Origin: an uncultured Gammaproteobacteria bacterium
GTDB lineage: Bacteria > Patescibacteriota > Microgenomatia > Levybacterales > UBA12049
Assembly: GCA_964553245.1 (NCBI GenBank)
Contig: CAZKJM010000001.1
Coordinates: forward strand, 362,667-426,666
Direction of reading: 5' to 3'
Length of the DNA stretch: 64,000 bases
Shown: positions 35,676 to 59,118 of the stretch, in pieces
Position numbering within the stretch: position 1 is the first letter of the stretch
How the letters are laid out: every line of letters begins with the position of its first letter
Translations under genes and position numbers: made by a program
Notes under the pieces: generated by a model
Told to the model about the DNA's origin: nothing
The model's database searches: none
Seen by the model: the letters and a program-made list of their open reading frames with translations, nothing else

Positions 35676-35727
35676 GAGCTCCGCATGTCGGTCTAGACCC
35701 GTTTCGGGTTATAGTCCTATCTGGCTC
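35676..35727 (-). repeat. Family-2 dispersed repeat copy H1
   Basis: GAGCTCCGCATGTCGGTCTAGACCCGTTTCGGGTTATAGTCCTATCTGGCTC; internal hairpin ACCCG-TTT-CGGGT. Confidence 0.55.
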
Positions 35728-35763
35728 TATGTGTCGGTCAAGAATCATTCAAAGTCATAGTCG
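35728..35763 (-). repeat. Family-2 dispersed repeat copy H2 (tandem, truncated head)
   Basis: TATGTGTCGGTCAAGAATCATTCAAAGTCATAGTCG directly abutting H1. Confidence 0.5.
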
Positions 35764-35834
35764 TTCAGGCCTAAATCTTTGAACAATAAACAACTCTTCA
35801 GTATAATTTAAAATGCTATAATGCGAATAAGTCT

Positions 35835-36837: not shown

Positions 36838-36893
36838 CTGGCTCTGCATGTCGGTCAAGACCAGTTTAGGGTTATAGTCCTACTCGGCTCGAG
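36838..36893 (+). repeat. Family-2 dispersed repeat copy I at left edge of the less AT-rich island
   Basis: CTGGCTCTGCATGTCGGTCAAGACCAGTTTAGGGTTATAGTCCTACTCGGCTCGAG. Confidence 0.55.
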
Positions 36894-48747: not shown

Positions 48748-48887
48748 TTTTACCTCCTCTTGGTTAAATTAATAACTTTACCCTAGAGGTGTTGCATATT
48801 AACTTCGTTGAGGGGAGATTGTCAAATCAAACCAAAAAGCTCCCCCCAGCGATGACTTGCGTCACCTGCCACCCTTTCGGGAGACAG

Positions 48888-48926
48888 CCTCGTGAGCGCT
48901 CTAGGGAGAGCTTATTGCTCACGAGG
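48888..48926 (+). other. Nested hairpin element: CCTCGTGAGC [GCTCT-AGGG-AGAGC] TTATT GCTCACGAGG
   Basis: 10-bp perfect outer stem plus 5-bp inner stem, in 440-bp intergenic region. Confidence 0.45.
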
Positions 48927-49115
48927 ACTTGTTTAACCATGCCCATTACTGGGTTTAGGTCGTTAGGGATATTTTACCAATCTTAGAGGAAATAAGAAAT
49001 AACAATCAGAAATAACTAAAAGTGGAGATAATGTGAGCAAAAGTTAACTTGACTTTATATCTTTAATTTGTTTGAATGAGAATAGATTTAGGAAGTAAAG
49101 CCTAACGAAACGATC

Positions 49116-50522: not shown

Positions 50523-50625
50523 CGGTAAAACTGCTCCATATTGACGCCAAAATGACTCCAACTATTGGGGTCTTTAGCTTGATATTCCTTAAATGTTTGT
50601 TTATGTTGTGTGTTGCAAAATAACT

Positions 50626-52233
50626 ATGAAAACTGCCATATTCTGCCGAGTAAGCAGTAAAGAACAAGAGGAAACAGGCTACTCCCTGCCAGCCCAGGAA
50701 AAGTTCTTAAACGAGTATCGAGACAAGCGTGGGTTTGAATCGGGAAAAGTATTCTCCATCTCTGAATCCGCGAGCGGAAAGAAACAAAGACAGTTATTCG
50801 ACCAGATGATGGCGTATGTCAAAAAAACCGATACGAAAATCTTAATCTGTGAGAAGGCAGACCGAATGACTCGCAATTTCAAAGACATGGTTATGATCGA
50901 TGAATGGCTTGAGGAAGACGAGGAAAGAGAAGTTCACCTAGTTAAAGACTCTCTTGTCCTTAATAAGAATTCCCGCTCCCAAGAAAAATTAAACTGGGGT
51001 ATCCGTATCCTATTTGCGAAAAACTACATAGACAACCTATCCGAAGAAGTAAAGAAGGGACAAAAAGAAAAGATTGCCCAGGGGTGGCTACCAACCAAAC
51101 CGCCAAACGGTTACAAGACCATTGGTGAGACTGGGCATAAAATCCATGTCATCGACGAGGACACCGCTCCTTTTGTGAGGAAAATGTTTGAACTATATCT
51201 CACAGGCAACTATTCAACTAAACGGTTATCCAAGAAAATGTATGCCGAGGGCATGAGATCGCAATTAGGGCACAAGCTTCCACACAGCAGAATCCATTCC
51301 CTGCTGCGTGAACCTTTTTATATTGGTAAAATTAAATGGAACGACGAGTTGTATGAAGGTAAACATCAGCCGTTGATTACCGTCGAGCAATTTAATAAAG
51401 TCCAGGCTATGCTTACTAGCAGAACCACACCCAAATACCGCAAGCACAATTTCCTCTTCCGAGGGCTTATCAAATGTGCTGGTTGCCACAACTCAATCAC
51501 CTTCGAAACGGCTAAGGGTCATATTTACGGTCATTGCAACCATTACCATGAATGCCCACAAACAACCTGGGTCAAGGAATATGAAGTTGAAGATCAGCTT
51601 TTAGAAGGCTTTGAAACCTTAAAAATCCAGAATGGTCGTATTGTTGATTGGCTTAAGAAGGCGCTCAAGGAAAGCCATCAAGACGAGGTTGAATATCACA
51701 ACAGCACTGTTAGCGAGCTTGAAGCCCGCTATGAAGCGGTGCAGAAGCGATTGGACAAATTGTATGACGATAAGCTCGATGAGAAAATCACTTCAGACTT
51801 CTACAACAGAAAATTCAAACAATACTCAGATGAGAAAGACGAGGTAACTGAGTCTATAAAGAAACACTCCCAGGCAAGCACAAGCTACATCAACTTAGGA
51901 GTGAACCTCTACGAGCTTTCACAGAGAGCCAAGGAGTTATACCTGCAAGCGAGAGCTAAAGGCATGATAGATGAGCAAAGGGCATTAATCAGGTTTATCT
52001 TCGCCACATTAACGGTTAATGAGGGAAAACTCAGCTATACCTACAGCAAGACATTTAAAATCCTCTCTGAGGCAGTCGAAGCGACCAACGGTTCGAAAGT
52101 GGATAAAACAGACGACTTGGAAAATAAAAAATTCGAACTTACAAAAAAGCCCGACAGTTCAACACAAAAGGACGCTTTGTTGCCTCTGCGTCCCATCTGG
52201 CTCCCCCGCGAGGATTCGAACCTCGAACCTTGA
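50626..52233 (+). CDS. Large serine recombinase (resolvase catalytic domain + recombinase domain + zinc ribbon); 3' end overlaps 3' exon of tRNA-Asn
   Basis: N-terminus MKTAIFCRVSSKEQEETGYSLPAQ (catalytic Ser), central recombinase domain, Cys cluster CAGCHNS...CNHYHEC; start taken at ATG 50626 (track ORF from 50593). Confidence 0.75.
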   Translation: MKTAIFCRVSSKEQEETGYSLPAQEKFLNEYRDKRGFESGKVFSISESASGKKQRQLFDQMMAYVKKTDTKILICEKADRMTRNFKDMVMIDEWLEEDEEREVHLVKDSLVLNKNSRSQEKLNWGIRILFAKNYIDNLSEEVKKGQKEKIAQGWLPTKPPNGYKTIGETGHKIHVIDEDTAPFVRKMFELYLTGNYSTKRLSKKMYAEGMRSQLGHKLPHSRIHSLLREPFYIGKIKWNDELYEGKHQPLITVEQFNKVQAMLTSRTTPKYRKHNFLFRGLIKCAGCHNSITFETAKGHIYGHCNHYHECPQTTWVKEYEVEDQLLEGFETLKIQNGRIVDWLKKALKESHQDEVEYHNSTVSELEARYEAVQKRLDKLYDDKLDEKITSDFYNRKFKQYSDEKDEVTESIKKHSQASTSYINLGVNLYELSQRAKELYLQARAKGMIDEQRALIRFIFATLTVNEGKLSYTYSKTFKILSEAVEATNGSKVDKTDDLENKKFELTKKPDSSTQKDALLPLRPIWLPREDSNLEP

Positions 52234-52478
52234 AGTTACACTTAATCTCCGATTTTCATCGAAGCGTGGACTATCTCATAGCCATATCTTCTTCAGATTT
52301 AGGCTCCAGGCGTATAGTCTCTGAACCTTCCCCGATATAATCGAGACTTGGCTGCGGATTACCTCGCATTTCTGCAGGGGCTTCCCGACAATTAACCCAG
52401 TTTTCACTCCGATGTTTCCATCGAAGGCTGCAATTTCAAATACTACAGCTTCCTGCTCTACCATTGAGCTACAGGGGA
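52198..52478 (-). tRNA. tRNA-Asn(GUU) interrupted by a ~206-nt group I intron in the anticodon loop (exons complement 52445-52478 and 52198-52238, CCA encoded)
   Basis: Exons give UCCCCUG-UA-GCUC-AAUGGUA-GAGC-A-GGAAG-CUGU/UAA-CUUCA-AGGUU-CGAGG-UUCGAAU-CCUCG-CGGGGGA-G-CCA; U1:A72, G73 and loop CUGUUAA as in bacterial tRNA-Asn. Confidence 0.7.
52239..52444 (-). ncRNA. Group I self-splicing intron (no ORF)
   Basis: Contains AAUCCGCAGC (Q), GUUCAGAGACUA (R), AAGAUAU..AUAGUCC (S), P-like AAAUGCGAGGUAA; P1 pairing GAAGCUGU with GCAG(C)CUUC gives U.G at 5' splice site; last intron nt is G. Confidence 0.7.
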
Positions 52479-53224
52479 ATATCTGCTATTTTACCATCAA
52501 ACAGAGCAAGAATCCACCCCATAATTTTACGATGTATCATGGAATCACTAAAGCGAATAGTAAAAACGCCATACTTGTGAATGTTTTTTCTAATTTTTTT
52601 AGTATCTTTTTTTATTTTAGCGATATAAGTTTTATTAAACTGATTTAGCGGAATTCCTGTCAATTTTGACCAAAATATTTTTGCCTTTTTTTCATCTAAT
52701 TCTTCATGAATCCAAATCACTCCTCTAATTCTATCTGGGGAAATCTTGGTAAATCTTAAAAACCATTGCATCATAAATTTAATCAACAGAGGGTCGGAGT
52801 TAGCAAATCCTACATTATGATCTCTTTTGGTTCCCTCAGCCGCATATAAAGCAACCCCTGCTATAAAGCTTTCCCTATCATTTATTTTTCCTATGTCTTT
52901 TCTTGCCTCTTTTCTTGCCTTGTTCGTCTTGAGTATTCTTTCCTGGCGCTTATTTTCAGCAGCAACCAAAGACCCTCTCTTCTGACCAAACATTTTATTA
53001 CTTAAAAGTCTTAATTTTTGTTTTTCAGTCAAAGAAATATCTTTACACCAATCACTTAAGGTGCTTTTTTGCACATCAATCTGCCGTTGAATTTCTCCAT
53101 AAGACAAACCTTGCCTTCTTAATTCTTGCGCCTTTAATTTATCTTCCAATCTACCAAAATAGCCCATTAATTTAATCTTAATCTGCGAACTATCAAAAAA
53201 CAAGTGAGTAAGGATATATACCAA
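52469..53224 (-). CDS. HTH-containing protein with a single LAGLIDADG-like motif (possible homing-endonuclease relative), abutting 5' end of the intron-containing tRNA
   Basis: HTH SYGEIQRQIDVQKSTLSDW; ESFIAGVALYAAEGTKRD resembles a degenerate LAGLIDADG; AT-rich like host genes. Confidence 0.3.
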   Translation of the reverse strand: MVYILTHLFFDSSQIKIKLMGYFGRLEDKLKAQELRRQGLSYGEIQRQIDVQKSTLSDWCKDISLTEKQKLRLLSNKMFGQKRGSLVAAENKRQERILKTNKARKEARKDIGKINDRESFIAGVALYAAEGTKRDHNVGFANSDPLLIKFMMQWFLRFTKISPDRIRGVIWIHEELDEKKAKIFWSKLTGIPLNQFNKTYIAKIKKDTKKIRKNIHKYGVFTIRFSDSMIHRKIMGWILALFDGKIADIPL

Positions 53225-53358
53225 GGTTCGAATAATTAAAGCTTCTTAAAACTAAGAAGTTTTACTTGTCATCATAGTCAGAGTTGTGGAGCATATAGCA
53301 GGTTTCATCTCTACGATTATCTGAAGCTTAGTAAACAAAAAGGGGTAAAGTTATAAAA

Positions 53359-54681
53359 TTAGCTTATTAGTTTTTTTTCTTTAAGGATTTTTTCGATTTG
53401 TTTTTTTGCCTCTTTTGGAACTTCGTATTTTACTCTTGTTGCCGGTTTATTTATTTTTATAAATCTTTCTAAGTTAATCGGCGTTCCTATTACAACCGAA
53501 TCACACTTAACTTTATTAATTGTTATTTCCAGATCTTTTACTTGTTCGTTGCTGTATCCCATTGCCGGAAGAAGAGTGCCGATGTTTGGGTATTGTTTAA
53601 AAGTTTCCTTTATTTTTCCAACTAAATAAGGGCGCGGATCAATAAGCTGTTTTGCGCCGTATTTTTTAGAAGCAGTAATTCCTGCTCCGGTTTTCATTTC
53701 GCCATGGGTTAAGGTTGGCCCATCCTCAATTACCAAAACTTTTTTGTTTTTTATTAAATCAGGCTTTTCTGTTGTAACTTCTGACTCTGTTTTAACAATT
53801 TCCGCTTTTGGATTATATTTTCTAATATTTTCTATTAATTTATATAAGTCTTCTTTTTTAGCATCATTAACTTTATTAACAACCACTAAGTCAGCAAGTC
53901 TTAAGTTTACTTCACCCGGATAATAACCTATTTCGTGTCCTGGTCTTAAAGGATCAACAACCGTTATTGTAAAATCGGGAACATAAAAAGAAGTATCATT
54001 GTTTCCTCCATCCCAAATAACAATATCTGCTTCTTTTTCCGCTTGTCTTAGAATTCCTTCATAATCAACACCTGCGTAAATAATATTTCCGATTGAAATA
54101 TGCGGCTCGTATTCTTCCATTTCCTCAATTGTGCATTTATGTTTTTTAAGATCCGCTATTGTTTCAAATCTTTGGATTTTTTGTTTCTCCAAATCCCCAT
54201 ACGGCATTGGATGTCTTACTAAGACTACTTTTTTACCTGATTTTTTTAATATATTTACAACCGCCCTTGATACCGGACTTTTACCACAGCCTGTTCTTAC
54301 TGCAACTATTGCAATTACCGGTTTTTTACTTTTTAGCATTGTTTTTGTAGCAGAAAGAATAGAAAATTTTGCACCGGCAGTAATTACTCTTGATGCTAAA
54401 TGCATTACTGTACCATAAGATAAATCACTGTATGACAAAACACACTCATCAATCTTTTTTTCTTGAATAATTTTTTCCAAGTCTTTTTCTTCCAAAATCG
54501 GTATTCCTTTTGGATAAAGTTTTCCGGCTAAGCTTTTTGGGTATTTTCTTCCGGCAATATCCGGAATCTGATTGGCTGTAAAGGCAACTACTTGATAATT
54601 AGTATTGTTTTTAAAAACGACGTTAAAGTTGTGGAAATCTCGTCCTGCGGCTCCGATTATTACAATTTTAGTTTTAATCAT
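53359..54681 (-). CDS. P-loop protein resembling cyclic 2,3-diphosphoglycerate synthetase / DUF1611 family
   Basis: 440 aa, N-terminal Rossmann-like IVIIGAAGRDFHNF and P-loop-like VRTGCGKSPVSRAV; length and motif pattern fit cDPGS-like proteins (recall only). Confidence 0.3.
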   Translation of the reverse strand: MIKTKIVIIGAAGRDFHNFNVVFKNNTNYQVVAFTANQIPDIAGRKYPKSLAGKLYPKGIPILEEKDLEKIIQEKKIDECVLSYSDLSYGTVMHLASRVITAGAKFSILSATKTMLKSKKPVIAIVAVRTGCGKSPVSRAVVNILKKSGKKVVLVRHPMPYGDLEKQKIQRFETIADLKKHKCTIEEMEEYEPHISIGNIIYAGVDYEGILRQAEKEADIVIWDGGNNDTSFYVPDFTITVVDPLRPGHEIGYYPGEVNLRLADLVVVNKVNDAKKEDLYKLIENIRKYNPKAEIVKTESEVTTEKPDLIKNKKVLVIEDGPTLTHGEMKTGAGITASKKYGAKQLIDPRPYLVGKIKETFKQYPNIGTLLPAMGYSNEQVKDLEITINKVKCDSVVIGTPINLERFIKINKPATRVKYEVPKEAKKQIEKILKEKKLIS

Positions 54682-54747
54682 TAGAACTTAAAATAAATTC
54701 TAATACTAAAGGATAGTTAAATTAAAAAGAAAAAACAAGGGGCAATT

Positions 54748-56115
54748 TTAAACAAAAAGAAGCCCTGCAAAGCTAAACATTATTACAACAAACATACCGA
54801 TCGCAAATTTATAAGCAAACTCTTTTTTGCCCTGAATAAAGCTATAGAATGACTTTGCTATTAAATTAACTGTGCTAATTAAAATAAACGCTAAAATTGC
54901 CGTTTCGAGATCAATGGTTTTACCAACTAGGGTAGAAACGTTAATAATTGCAGCATCTGTTCCTGTTAAAGAAGCAATTGCGGAGGCAATATAAAATCCA
55001 CTTTGCCCAAAATACAAAAGCGCAATCTGGCTTACAATTTTAATTGTTAAAAATAGAAAAGCAAACTTTATTGCCGGAATCATTGCAAATATTTCGGTCT
55101 CTTTTTCTTTGTTTAAGCTTTTTTCTTCATTGTTAACTTTGCCTTTTTTTAGAAGAAAAAATAATCCTACCAAAAATGCTCCGAATATCGTAGAAGACCA
55201 AACCGGAGTTACACTAACTAAATATGGTCCGTTAATAGATGCCATTAAGATAAATAGGGAAAAATAGCTTACTAAATTAGCAAAAACAGCAGATGCAACA
55301 AGGCTATTTGTGTTTTTTCCGGTTTTGCTTTCCTGAGCAAGTGATTGTGTCGTTGCAGTTGAAGAAATAAATCCTCCTACCATACTTGCCAGAAGCAATC
55401 CTTTTTTCTTACCGATTGTTCTTTCTAAAATATATCCTGCCATATCTACTCCAGTTATAATTGCAATGATAAACCAAAGATTAAACGGATTTATCAACTC
55501 TATTTTTGATAAATCCCCCGCCTGAACACCATAAGTTGATAAAAGATTAATAAAACCAGGAATATCGGAAAGTGAATAGGACTGATTTGGTAAAAAAGGC
55601 AGAATCACAACCGCAATTAAAGCATAGCTTATAAAAGCGTTTATCTCTTCTCTTTGAATTCCTTTAATAGCTAAATTAACTGCTTCTTTTTTAGAAAGAA
55701 TTAAAGTTAGCACAATGGTAATCGCAAAAATTATTTGCAGTGGGAAAAACTCGGTTGAAATTAAAAATCCGATAATAAAAGTGAGCATTATTGCTAGTTC
55801 TGTTGTAATTCCAAAATCCTTAGTAATTAAGCTGTTAATAACATAATATGCTATGGATAAAATAAAAAAAGATGATGCTATAATAAGCGCTATTGATTGA
55901 TAATTATTAATAAGAAGTCCCGTTATGACACCAAGTGTGCTAATTAAAGAAAAGGTACGTACTCCTGCTAAATGAAATTCGCTTTCCAAGCCTTTTTCTT
56001 CTTTTGGTTTTTCAATAATATCTCTTGATTCTCTTTCGAGTCCAATTAAAAGACCCATTACTAACCCTAGTAAAAGTTTTAACGGCAAAATAAGATGCAT
56101 ATTTACATTATACAA
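54748..56115 (-). CDS. MgtC/SapB N-terminal domain + DUF4010 membrane protein
   Basis: GLLIGLERESR motif near N-terminus, ~12 TM. Confidence 0.5.
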   Translation of the reverse strand: MYNVNMHLILPLKLLLGLVMGLLIGLERESRDIIEKPKEEKGLESEFHLAGVRTFSLISTLGVITGLLINNYQSIALIIASSFFILSIAYYVINSLITKDFGITTELAIMLTFIIGFLISTEFFPLQIIFAITIVLTLILSKKEAVNLAIKGIQREEINAFISYALIAVVILPFLPNQSYSLSDIPGFINLLSTYGVQAGDLSKIELINPFNLWFIIAIITGVDMAGYILERTIGKKKGLLLASMVGGFISSTATTQSLAQESKTGKNTNSLVASAVFANLVSYFSLFILMASINGPYLVSVTPVWSSTIFGAFLVGLFFLLKKGKVNNEEKSLNKEKETEIFAMIPAIKFAFLFLTIKIVSQIALLYFGQSGFYIASAIASLTGTDAAIINVSTLVGKTIDLETAILAFILISTVNLIAKSFYSFIQGKKEFAYKFAIGMFVVIMFSFAGLLFV

Positions 56116-56141
56116 ATCACTGAAGATGAATTACAAATGGA

Positions 56142-57224
56142 TTAACCGAGGTAATCTTTTAGTTTATTTCCTCTAGAGGGATGTCTTAGCTTTCTCAGTG
56201 CTTTTGCCTCGATTTGCCTGATTCTTTCCCTTGTTACAGCAAACATTTTCCCAACTTCTTCCAAAGTTTTTGGTCTTCCGTCTTTTAAACCGAATCTTTC
56301 TTCCAAAACCCTTTTTTCCCTGTCGGAAAGCGTTGACAATACCTGCTCCACCTGCTCTTTTAATAATTCCCTTGAGGCAGTGTCAAAAAGCGTTGGGGCG
56401 GATGAATCGTGAATAAAATCACCAAGTCTTGAGTCTTCCTCGTCACCAACAGGTGATTCAAGGCTTGCCGGCTCTTGAGAAATCTTAATTATTTCAAGCG
56501 CTTTCTCAGGATCAATACCTAATGTTTTTGCAACTTCTTCCGGAGTCGGTTCTCTCCCTAATTCCTGCATTAACTTTCTAGATGCTCTTAAAAACCTGTT
56601 TATGTTTTCTACCATATGAACAGGAATTCTAATTGTTCTTGCCTGATCAGCAATTGCTCTTGTAATGGATTGTCTTATCCACCAAGTTGCGTAAGTGGAA
56701 AATTTAAATCCTCTTTGCCAATCATATTTTTCGACCGCTCTTATTAATCCCTGATTTCCTTCTTGGATTAAATCCAAGAGCGTTAATCCTCTACCAACGT
56801 ATTTTTTTGCAATTGAAACAACTAACCTTAGGTTTGAATTAACCAATGTCGCTTTTGCTCTTTTATCTCCCTTTTCTACTCTTTTTGCAAGAGAAATTTC
56901 CTGATCAAAAGTTAAAAGAGGAATTCTTCCGATTTCTTTTAAGTACATTCTTACCGGATCGGAAACTGTTCCTTCGGTAAGAACAGTTAATGCCTCCAGC
57001 TCTTTTTCCAAATCCTCGATTGGTTTTTGATCGTCTTTTTCTGCTGCAACGGATTCAAAAACATCTATATCTGAATTTAAAAGTTTGTTATAAAGTTCGT
57101 CTAGTTCGACAATGTGTTCTTCCGGATGCGGGAAAATGGATAAAATCTCGTCCTGAGTTATGTAACCTCTTTTTTTAGCTGACACTACAATATCACCCAA
57201 GATATTTGGTTGCTTTTGCTTCAT
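56142..57224 (-). CDS. rpoD: RNA polymerase sigma-70 factor RpoD/SigA
   Basis: Region 2 [46 protein letters not shown], region 4 HTH. Confidence 0.85.
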
Positions 57225-57269
57225 AAGAATTAACCTATTTTAGCACGTTGAGCCTATAAAAGAAACTGT

Positions 57270-59045
57270 CTATATGTTCTTAGGAAGCTTACTAATAATT
57301 AAAGATAGTTCTTTTTCTAAGGCTTCGGTTATTTCTAAGTTATTTTCCTGCTTTGCCTTCTTGAGTTTTTCCGAAATAATTTTTATTTTTTCTTTACCGT
57401 CAATTAAAACCATTTCTTTAACTACTTTTTCCAACTCCTCACTGTATTTTTTTAAATTCTCAAAATCAGATATGGGAAAAATGTAACAAGCATCAAAGGT
57501 TGGCAAAAGTTCCTTTGGTAAAGCACTTGAGAATTTTTTATGATCAAATTCTTCTATGTTTTTAAAATAGTTTATTAAGTAATCCAATATTCTTTTAATG
57601 GCTGGTATTTGAAAAGAATAATTGCTTAATATTGTATTGACCGATTGAAACAATTGTCTTTGGTTTTTACCCTGAATAACCAAAGACAAAAAGTATTCTT
57701 CCAAAATCTCTTTTCTTATTTTTTTATCTTTCCTTTTTATAAAAACACCTTCTTCTTTTTTGCCGCTTTGGATTTTTTGAACCTGTTTAATCAAAGATTC
57801 ATAGGAAACCTCTATTTCTTTACTTAATAATTTTAGATAATGCTCTTTTACTATTTCGTTTTCTATCTGGGAAAGTATTGGAAGAAGCTCGTCTGTAATA
57901 TTTCTTTTTCCTTCGATTTTATTTTTATTGTTCTTAGCAATTGTTCTTGAAATTAAATAATCGTATACACCGATTTCATTTTTAACTGCTTTTTTAAATT
58001 CGATCGGGTCATTTTTAATCGCTTCATCAGGATCTTTTCCGTTGGAGATTAGAATAACCGTTGTTGTTAATCCTCTTTTTTCTAAAACCGCAAGGCTTCT
58101 TTTAATAGCCTCAAATCCGGCTTCGTCTTGATCAAGACATAAAGTAACTTTTTGACAAAACCTGGACAAAAGTATTGCCTGATTTTCCGTTAATGCAGTC
58201 CCCTTTATAGCAACAACATTTTTAATTCCCTCCTTAACCATTGATATCAAATCAAATTCCCCCTCAACTACGATCACTTGGTTTTGTTTTTTTATTTCTT
58301 CTTTTGCAAGGTCCAACCCGAAAAATAATTCACCTTTGTGATATACAGGCGTATCCTTGGTGTTTATATATTTTGGGCCATCCGCTGCGCTTGATTCCTC
58401 AAAAGTTCTTGCCGAAAAACCGACAATGTTTCCTCTATGATCTTTTAAAGGAAACATAATCCTGCCTTTAAAAAAATCAATTATTCTTCCTCTTATTTCA
58501 AAACTTAAACCAGCTTCGATTAAATCTTTTTTTTCTGTCTTTTTCTTATTAATTAAATAATTGGAAAGACTGCTTATTCTCGGAGAAAAACCGATTGAAA
58601 AAGTTTCTATTAAGCCTTTATTCATTTTTCGTTTTTCAAAAAGATAATCTAATGCCTTTTTTCCAACGGAATGGTTTAGCAAAAGATAAGAGTAAAATTT
58701 GGCTGCTTTTTCGTTTAAATTATAAATTTTTTCTTTTTTACCCTGATTTCCTTTATCAAAAATATAATCCTTTAATTCAACTCCTGCTTTTTTAGCTAAA
58801 ATTCTTAAAGCCTCTGGAAACTCAAGGTTTTCATACTCCATTAAAAAAGTAAAAGCATCCCCGCCTTTTCCGCAACCAAAACAATGCCAAATCTGTCTTT
58901 CCGGGGAAATAACAAAAGAGGGTGTTTTTTCGTTATGGAAAGGACAAACAGCCTTAAAATTTCTACCCGCCTTTTTAAGCGAAAGATATTCCGATATTAA
59001 ACTTACGATATCTATTTTTTCCCTGACTTGATTTACCTGATCCAT
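57270..59045 (-). CDS. dnaG: DNA primase DnaG
   Basis: Zinc-binding CPFHNEKTPSFVIS...WHCFGCGKGGD, TOPRIM domain. Confidence 0.8.
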   Translation of the reverse strand: MDQVNQVREKIDIVSLISEYLSLKKAGRNFKAVCPFHNEKTPSFVISPERQIWHCFGCGKGGDAFTFLMEYENLEFPEALRILAKKAGVELKDYIFDKGNQGKKEKIYNLNEKAAKFYSYLLLNHSVGKKALDYLFEKRKMNKGLIETFSIGFSPRISSLSNYLINKKKTEKKDLIEAGLSFEIRGRIIDFFKGRIMFPLKDHRGNIVGFSARTFEESSAADGPKYINTKDTPVYHKGELFFGLDLAKEEIKKQNQVIVVEGEFDLISMVKEGIKNVVAIKGTALTENQAILLSRFCQKVTLCLDQDEAGFEAIKRSLAVLEKRGLTTTVILISNGKDPDEAIKNDPIEFKKAVKNEIGVYDYLISRTIAKNNKNKIEGKRNITDELLPILSQIENEIVKEHYLKLLSKEIEVSYESLIKQVQKIQSGKKEEGVFIKRKDKKIRKEILEEYFLSLVIQGKNQRQLFQSVNTILSNYSFQIPAIKRILDYLINYFKNIEEFDHKKFSSALPKELLPTFDACYIFPISDFENLKKYSEELEKVVKEMVLIDGKEKIKIISEKLKKAKQENNLEITEALEKELSLIISKLPKNI

Positions 59046-59118
59046 AAGAGGTACGCCTATTTTAACACGTTATAGATTAATTTTCCCACTGGACTAAAAA
59101 ATAAATATTTGTTAAGTT

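Follow-up and report, generated by a model that had tools for sequence, protein, structure and literature searches.

A compact group I intron splits a tRNA-Asn(GUU) gene of a Patescibacteria host at a locus crowded with candidate mobile elements

In a 64-kb stretch of contig CAZKJM010000001.1 (assembly GCA_964553245.1; the whole stretch is called the window here, and positions are counted from its first letter), the minus-strand segment 52478-52198 is very probably a functional tRNA-Asn(GUU) gene of a bacterium of the Patescibacteria (candidate phyla radiation, CPR), interrupted between U35 and U36 by a self-splicing group I intron of 206 nt. The split gene would be transcribed as a ~281-nt precursor, in which the intron would fold into a compact P1-P9 core with L2 and L9 as GAAA tetraloops and a receptor-like loop in P8; the spliced product would be a 75-nt tRNA with anticodon loop CUGUUAA, a U1:A72 pair, G73 and an encoded CCA. 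This type of element is already published and experimentally validated, and the window holds a further, unusually compact instance of it. The gene and its downstream flank comprise:

52478-52198, minus strand: whole tRNA-Asn(GUU) gene, two exons plus the 206-nt group I intron
52445-52478, minus strand: 5' exon, 34 nt, tRNA positions 1-35 (read from the sequence; ARAGORN -i)
52239-52444, minus strand: group I intron, 206 nt, starting AGUAUUUG and ending ...UUAAGUG (RF00028; covariation in the family; substitutions in the metagenomic contig L116)
52198-52238, minus strand: 3' exon, 41 nt (read from the sequence; ARAGORN -i; 77 intron-less homologues)
52166-52193, minus strand: hairpin GGACGC/GCGUCC followed by UUUU, 5 nt past the CCA (read from the sequence)

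The 5' exon (52478-52445) reads UCCCCUG-UA-GCUC-AAUGGUA-GAGC-A-GGAAG-CUGU, i.e. acceptor strand, D-arm, anticodon stem and CUGU, and is identical in intron-less and intron-bearing genes from other Patescibacteria. The 3' exon (52238-52198) reads UAA-CUUCA-AGGUU-CGAGG-UUCGAAU-CCUCG-CGGGGGA-G-CCA, with variable loop AGGUU, T-arm CGAGG-UUCGAAU-CCUCG, G73 at 52201 and the encoded CCA at 52200-52198. Inside the 206 nt that separate them lie the core strings AAUCCGCAGCC, GUUCAGAGACUA and GAGAUAGUCC. An earlier sequence-only reading of this DNA had pointed out these tRNA halves and core elements, all of which are present, and had taken the insert for an ORF-less (ORF, open reading frame) group I intron of about 206 nt in a tRNA-Asn(GUU) gene. 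The Rfam comparison that it proposed agrees: the Intron_gpI model RF00028 (gathering score 50 bits) matches 52454-52247 of the minus strand along its full length (1-253) at 76.3 bits, E = 1.3e-17, one of two matches in total from the Rfam scan of the window. When introns are allowed, ARAGORN calls a 75-nt tRNA-Asn(gtt) with a 206-nt intron following 'gctgt'; in default mode it reports zero tRNAs across the whole 64-kb window, intron-split tRNAs being a known blind spot of such annotation. Three ORFs of 62-101 aa overlap the intron, with zero Pfam matches above cut-off; the 62-aa ORF begins within the D-arm and continues through the intron.

The exact junction comes from comparing alleles. We scanned 185,579 species genomes with the 5'-exon pattern AGCTCAAYGGTAGAGCAGGAAGCTGT and obtained 109 loci, nearly all in Patescibacteria metagenome-assembled genomes (MAGs; Levy-, Roizman-, Woese-, Shapiro- and Chisholmbacteria, and WWE3). 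Of these, 104 could be classified as uninterrupted or intron-bearing: 77 have an uninterrupted tRNA-Asn reading ...GGAAGCTGT|TAACTTCA... (CTGT|TAACTTCA; CTGT|TAAC), and 27 carry an insert of 173-569 nt exactly at the CUGU|UAAC point. All 27 inserts pass RF00028 (57.8-107.4 bits) and all end in G, as does the window intron (omega-G, 52239), whose terminal G the sequence-only reading had noted. The predicted spliced tRNA is identical over positions 1-72 to five intron-less genes, which together with the ARAGORN call upholds its identity as tRNA-Asn(GUU); its U1:A72 pair and G73 agree with bacterial tRNA-Asn as well.

Two junctions would yield a 7-nt anticodon loop, one after U35 (Asn, GUU) and one after U33 (Thr, UGU). 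The former, which the sequence-only reading had preferred, is the one indicated by the placement of the model's conserved P1 splice-site U on U35 by cmscan, by the 77 uninterrupted and 27 interrupted alleles, and by the sequenced ligated exons of a homologue, joined at 35/36 (PMC13011429). U35 lies opposite G14 of the intron guide as a U.G wobble, and U33 lies opposite A16. We aligned the window intron with 22 introns of the scan that lack an endonuclease and with six from publications, both experimentally validated introns included, with 9 nt of each exon (n=29); the U.G at the 5' splice site, within CUGU/GCAG, is found in 29/29. A G|TAA junction is likewise resolved in 62 introns linked to p251, the gene upstream of the window tRNA.

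The fold of the intron is under selection. Onto this alignment we projected a P1-P9 structure derived by hand, its P3/P7 pseudoknot included; all ten helices form in the window intron, as follows (helices by intron numbering where stated):

52427-52449, minus strand: P1, exon G31-U35 (52449-52445) and intron 1-3 (52444-52442) with intron 11-18 (52434-52427), guide AUUGCAGC (cmscan; family)
52407-52426, minus strand: P2, 8 bp, intron 19-26/31-38, GAAA tetraloop at 52418-52415 (covariation; L116)
52306-52400, minus strand: P3, intron 45-50/134-139, around the P4-P6 domain (covariation)
within 52306-52400, minus strand: P4, intron 55-61/87-92; P5, 64-71/78-84; P6/P6a, 93-105/109-120 (covariation in P4 and P6a)
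52268-52321, minus strand: P7, intron 124-130/172-177, with bulged A125, pseudoknotted with P3, around P8 (invariant pairs)
within 52268-52321, minus strand: P8, intron 140-150/156-165, with a CCUAAA/UAUGG internal loop (covariation)
52247-52264, minus strand: P9, 7-bp hairpin, GAAA tetraloop at 52257-52254 (covariation; L116)

Standard pairs fill 94.7% of the alignment cells, a share that falls to 36-47% once the 3' partners are shifted by 1-3 columns, and in 30 of the 53 pairs both sides have changed. Covariation scores 0.438, compared with 0.149 in shuffles, none of which (0/500) matches the observed value; the foldable P3-P9 core expected from the letters alone is thereby borne out. The covarying helices are P2 (7/7 tested pairs), P3, P4, P6a, P8 and P9 (6/7 pairs), while the CUGU/GCAG part of P1 and each of the six P7 pairs show no variation (29/29 sequences). 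The internal loop of P8 appears receptor-like, resembling a tetraloop receptor in its sequence; the template for this comparison was the 11-nt tetraloop receptor.

A closer comparison is offered by the metagenomic contigs L115 and L116, which carry the same 206-nt intron at 88% identity. L116 differs from the window by 24 substitutions, all of them intronic, the 75-nt exons being identical at 75/75 positions. Nineteen of the substitutions strike 12 helix pairs, every one of which (12/12) is still paired, in seven cases with both sides changed; the five remaining substitutions fall in loops. In P2 the pairs 19/38, 20/37, 22/35 and 26/31 are altered on both sides, and in P9 five pairs are altered with pairing kept throughout.

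The P1 proposed by the sequence-only reading stands in part: its U.G pair at the 5' splice site (U35.G14) is as described, and its extension (GAAG/CUUC with a bulged C) was rejected, since covariation and L116 assign CUUC to the 5' strand of P2. A conserved P10 between L1 and the 3' exon (7/8 pairs in the window) was also considered and dropped: L116 has U in place of G8, and P10 is essentially missing from the validated intron. An additional hairpin, placed between P7 and P3' in Saccharimonadia and most other published Asn members, is absent from the window intron, and the smallest family members go without P9.

Introns of this class have a published context. Group I-split bacterial tRNAs were extended from 4 to 21 classes by Williams (bioRxiv 2020, 10.1101/2020.01.27.920355), whose seed alignment holds Asn.4Ug, Asp.4Ug and Tyr.4Ug members. 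Nakagawa et al. (mSystems 2026, PMC13011429) found that Patescibacteria introns at 35/36 of tRNA-Asn and of tRNA-Asp splice precisely in vitro; the tRNA-Asn intron of GCA_016700035.1 self-splices at 35/36, and its omega-G to C mutant blocks exon ligation. The window intron aligns across the whole core with six published introns, with shared helices and covariation. With the GCA_016700035.1 intron it has in common the GCAGC guide, AAUCCGCAGCCAAG, GGUUCAGAGACUA, GAGAUAGUCC and the ...GUG|UAAC junction, and with the published Microgenomatia gene of GCA_016700135.1 the anticodon stem, guide sequence, 3' junction and 3' exon start. With the PMC13011429/Asn.4Ug class as a whole it shares host tRNA, insertion point and phylum, a CUGU/GCAGC P1 with U.G, the failure of annotation and the ambiguity between Asn and Thr. 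This exact intron was found in no published sequence that we compared (Table S3) and in no species-representative genome; an identical locus is present on metagenomic contigs Logan SRR8476420 and ENA ERZ27257500.

Two comparisons made by the sequence-only reading do not hold up. It had placed the intron near the minimum size for group I introns, and relatives in the same tRNA measure 173-190 nt, the published Patescibacteria survey spanning 184-894 nt (PMC13011429); in compactness, and in having no hairpin between P7 and P3', the window intron resembles the validated 196-nt Asp intron and a 190-nt Levybacteria intron (L015). It had also chosen the Azoarcus intron (IC3) for comparison, and the nearest relatives are instead the Patescibacteria tRNA-Asn/Asp introns at 35/36, published mostly as IA: 25 of 28 introns at 35/36 belong to that subgroup, and no Patescibacteria introns to IC (PMC13011429). 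From the Azoarcus pre-tRNA-Ile(CAU) intron (IC3, 205 nt) the window intron differs in host tRNA, insertion position and core sequences (Aol6.Ile2.5Ug row of Williams' seed alignment). Both introns are small, ORF-less and situated in the anticodon loop of a bacterial tRNA. Their layout is also similar: both have a GAAA tetraloop in L2 and another in L9, and P8 is receptor-like.

The host belongs to the phylum Patescibacteria and is probably of Microgenomatia type, because the loci with the exon pattern are nearly all in Patescibacteria MAGs. The window is ~30% GC, and chromosomal genes, among them dnaG, rpoD and an MgtC/DUF4010 gene, lie upstream of its tRNA; the order dnaG-rpoD-tRNA-Asn is common to the window and Patescibacteria MAGs, and homologues of p251 are labelled Daviesbacteria or 'Patescibacteria group'. 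Searched with blastn, a collection of 50,697 phage records gave zero matches to the locus, and within the reach of that collection the element is not of phage origin.

Several points weigh against reading the locus as a functional, self-splicing tRNA gene. Splicing of the window intron would follow from its validated homologues and from general group I chemistry, and the assays concern those homologues. The window P3 is weaker than that of relatives, with G.U in 3/6 pairs and one flanking mismatch; two of the three G.U pairs are Watson-Crick in L116 and L015. Folded thermodynamically by itself, the intron does no better than shuffles (z = -1.2), as expected for a pseudoknotted ribozyme, and this lends no independent support. 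A sigma-70 consensus scan called no promoter for the split gene, the sole promoter-like feature visible being an extended -10-like TGGTAAAAT at 52496-52488, picked out by eye. Finally, the copy number of tRNA-Asn can be viewed within the 64-kb window only, not genome-wide. At the other end of the gene, the hairpin at 52166-52193 is likely its terminator, judging from its sequence. The terminator scan did not call it, because its loop is 12 nt, and called another site, 52154-52133; the hairpin is kept 3' of tRNA-Asn in the intron-less L038 and L091 and in the intron-bearing L088. The window hairpin also lies within a recombinase ORF on the opposite strand.

That recombinase raises the question of whether the split gene is resident in the chromosome or cargo of the island beside it. 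It is a large serine recombinase of 546 aa (50593-52233, plus strand), convergent with the tRNA, and its final 12 codons are complementary to the 3' exon. It stands at the head of a block of ~15 kb and ~40% GC (roughly 37.0-52.2 kb) in the ~30% GC genome; the contents give this block the look of a defence-type island:

roughly 37.0-52.2 kb: S26-peptidase-like gene, ResIII helicase/TnsA-like nuclease, N6/N4 DNA methylase, 1,141-aa protein and LOOT RNA

The overlap of recombinase and 3' exon would suit the tRNA being cargo. So would the comparison of L038 with window 52095-59088, in which the 3' exon and island flank have 89.6% DNA identity, versus 74.6% for dnaG-rpoD; an island end that is better conserved than core genes suggests recent horizontal spread. 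Against this, the rpoD-to-tRNA-Asn order is kept in many Patescibacteria loci with no recombinase nearby, and related islands adjoin intron-less (L038, L091, L023) as well as intron-bearing (L088, L111) tRNA-Asn genes, so that the tRNA fits an attachment target, not cargo. We therefore consider it very unlikely that the gene belongs to the island. Homologous recombinases occur in the DNA around tRNA-Asn in 33 of the 109 loci, near either allele type, for which reason the 3' end of tRNA-Asn looks like a recurrent integration site. A direct-repeat search for att sites of the island found none involving the tRNA, which is uninformative because large serine recombinases need no long repeats.

It is highly improbable that the intron is a decaying, splicing-dead relic in a tRNA pseudogene, with tRNA-Asn supplied from elsewhere. 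Such a state would accommodate the three G.U pairs and flanking mismatch of P3 and the mobile elements that surround the locus, and a redundant gene elsewhere is conceivable since the 64-kb window has no second tRNA. Yet ten of ten helices are intact, and neither the 24 differences from L116, which spare pairing, nor the unchanged exons are expected of a pseudogene; moreover, intron-bearing and intron-less copies of the same anticodon rarely occur together in one genome (PMC13011429). The reading as tRNA-Thr(UGU), with the intron at 33/34 (spliced CU|...G|UGUAA), is effectively refuted: although at both candidate junctions a U precedes the 5' site and a G the 3' site, ARAGORN and tFind mix up Asn 35/36 with Thr 33/34 and give many homologues the Thr call (Table 1, PMC13011429), and ARAGORN calls Thr for ~20 p251-linked loci, the 77 uninterrupted homologues always have CTGTTAAC and never CTTGTAAC, five of them identical to the Asn product, G73 and U1:A72 suit Asn, the homologue was ligated at 35/36, and the U33-A16 pair, which the sequence-only reading had already judged the poorer P1, lacks the wobble that is conserved at U35.

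Presence of the tRNA-Asn intron varies between very close relatives. The nearest relative by rpoD, L038 (96% amino-acid identity), has identical tRNA-Asn exons and no intron, so the intron was recently gained or lost.

Immediately upstream of the split gene is p251:

52472-53167, minus strand: p251, 232 aa from M20 of ORF 52469-53224, N-terminal helix-turn-helix (HTH) and C-terminal LAGLIDADG-fold domain

Its TAG stop (52471-52469) coincides with tRNA nt 8-10. Three ORFs thus enter the tRNA, two by their stops (p251 and the recombinase) and one, the 62-aa ORF, by its start in the D-arm. Annotation of p251 gave a weak HTH and nothing further: curated LAGLIDADG models of Pfam, NCBIfam and PHROGs did not match p251 or 40 family members, for which only HTH models did, and an hhalign comparison of the p251 family with I-CreI was negative. 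The family profile does match residues 92-145 of I-DmoI (GLYVAEGDK... versus aLYwgEGsK...; E 0.0034-0.008), and p251 has the LAGLIDADG alpha/beta fold and the motif helix, with its acidic residue followed by G. E111 and G112 are kept in at least 90% of 72 diverse members, and the I-DmoI glutamate that aligns with E111 is one that we take to be catalytic. From its sequence, p251 may be a free-standing homing endonuclease, and it may have a functional connection with the split gene.

We fetched p251 loci from metagenomes and genome records by protein family alone (the family, large and so far undescribed, comprises 2,256 representative clusters). A tRNA-Asn lies immediately 3' of p251 in all 73 loci with enough downstream DNA; 64 of these have a group I intron at 35/36 and nine are intron-less. 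After de-duplication, 52 of 61 p251 clusters are intron-bearing, versus 22 of 82 tRNA-Asn loci without p251 (Fisher odds ratio 15.8, p = 2.7e-12, not corrected for phylogeny). We had considered that p251 might be exclusive to intron-bearing loci, and rejected this on the nine clusters that adjoin an intron-less tRNA-Asn.

About a dozen loci have an orphan, intron-less 5' half of tRNA-Asn ahead of p251; orphan copies with a mutated anticodon loop are seen in L157, L175, L177, L178, L180, L190-L193, L119 and L125/L126. The window retains only a remnant of such a copy, at 53180-53205 (minus strand), upstream of the p251 start. A promoter-like TTGACA-17-TATAAT upstream of p251 lies within an apparent degraded tRNA 3' half (TAACTTGACATTGTAGGTTCG). 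Because orphan tRNA-Asn remnants precede it, p251 would seem to have arrived via insertion into, or duplication of, the tRNA gene.

In relatives the same upstream slot can hold a different gene, an 82-aa GIY-YIG protein (PF01541, E 3.2e-18), present in L038 as well as a dozen or more further loci:

L038:5780-6140: GIY-YIG cassette
L083, L091, L103, L027, L005, L063, L084, L016 and L070: further loci with the cassette

On its 5' side the cassette has an orphan tRNA-Asn 5' half ending exactly at position 35 (...GGAAGCTGT), its D-arm broken by a GC palindrome, TCCGCCAGCTGGCGGA or CCTGCCTGCCGGCAGGCAGG; on its 3' side is an intact tRNA-Asn, and some loci have tandem units. From this arrangement, the cassettes of related genomes appear to insert at the intron site, 35/36, and look like they restore the tRNA gene by the duplicated 5' half, not by a ribozyme. 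Our literature searches found no description of a GIY-YIG/tRNA-Asn cassette.

Free-standing endonucleases that take part in collaborative homing are known from phages (PMC3984707), so far the only source of such cases. The window resembles these cases in pairing an ORF-less intron with an adjacent, separately encoded endonuclease-fold gene, and differs in that p251, known from sequence alone, stands beside a cellular tRNA gene. It is a tentative and on balance doubtful proposal that the tRNA-Asn intron is mobile and one among selfish elements that compete or cooperate, with p251 a homing endonuclease acting on it in trans or an intron-independent cassette. In the first case p251 would mobilise the endonuclease-less intron by collaborative homing; in the second, the p251 cassette would insert into the tRNA gene and repair it by a duplicate 5' part that it carries. 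That p251 may be such an independent cassette, instead of a partner of the intron, is suggested by the nine intron-less clusters and the flanking orphan tRNA fragments.

Two further features lie in the island or near its edge. A LOOT RNA (RF03000; 77.8 bits, cut-off 46.4) occurs at 48851-48961 on the minus strand, between a 290-aa ORF and small ORFs; the main text of Weinberg 2017 makes no mention of LOOT RNA. An intergenic repeat of ~50 nt (GCTCYGCATGTCGGTCWAGACC.GTTT.GGGTTATAGTCCTA..GGCTC) has three copies on the plus strand (35678-35727, 35724-35773 and 36841-36890), which flank a NUDIX gene close to the left boundary of the higher-GC block. The repeat has no Rfam match, and its folding is not convincing: the best z, that of the tandem pair on the plus strand, is -2.3.

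Default tRNA finders miss the split gene, gene callers place ORFs over it, and intron-aware tools may label it tRNA-Thr; automatic annotation would blanket 52198-52478 with protein-coding calls. Missed split tRNAs affect estimates of genome completeness and codon capacity in Patescibacteria, as already published. What the window adds is an unusually compact example, intron presence and absence between very close relatives, and one lead worth following, namely a mobile-element hotspot: an HTH-LAGLIDADG-fold gene upstream and GIY-YIG cassettes in relatives, clustering on tRNA-Asn, with serine-recombinase islands downstream. The published survey looked within introns alone for endonuclease genes, and its inference was that mobility is limited (PMC13011429); if either proposal for p251 is true, that inference needs revising for these introns. 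This lead matters for the question of how group I introns that lack an endonuclease spread in reduced genomes.

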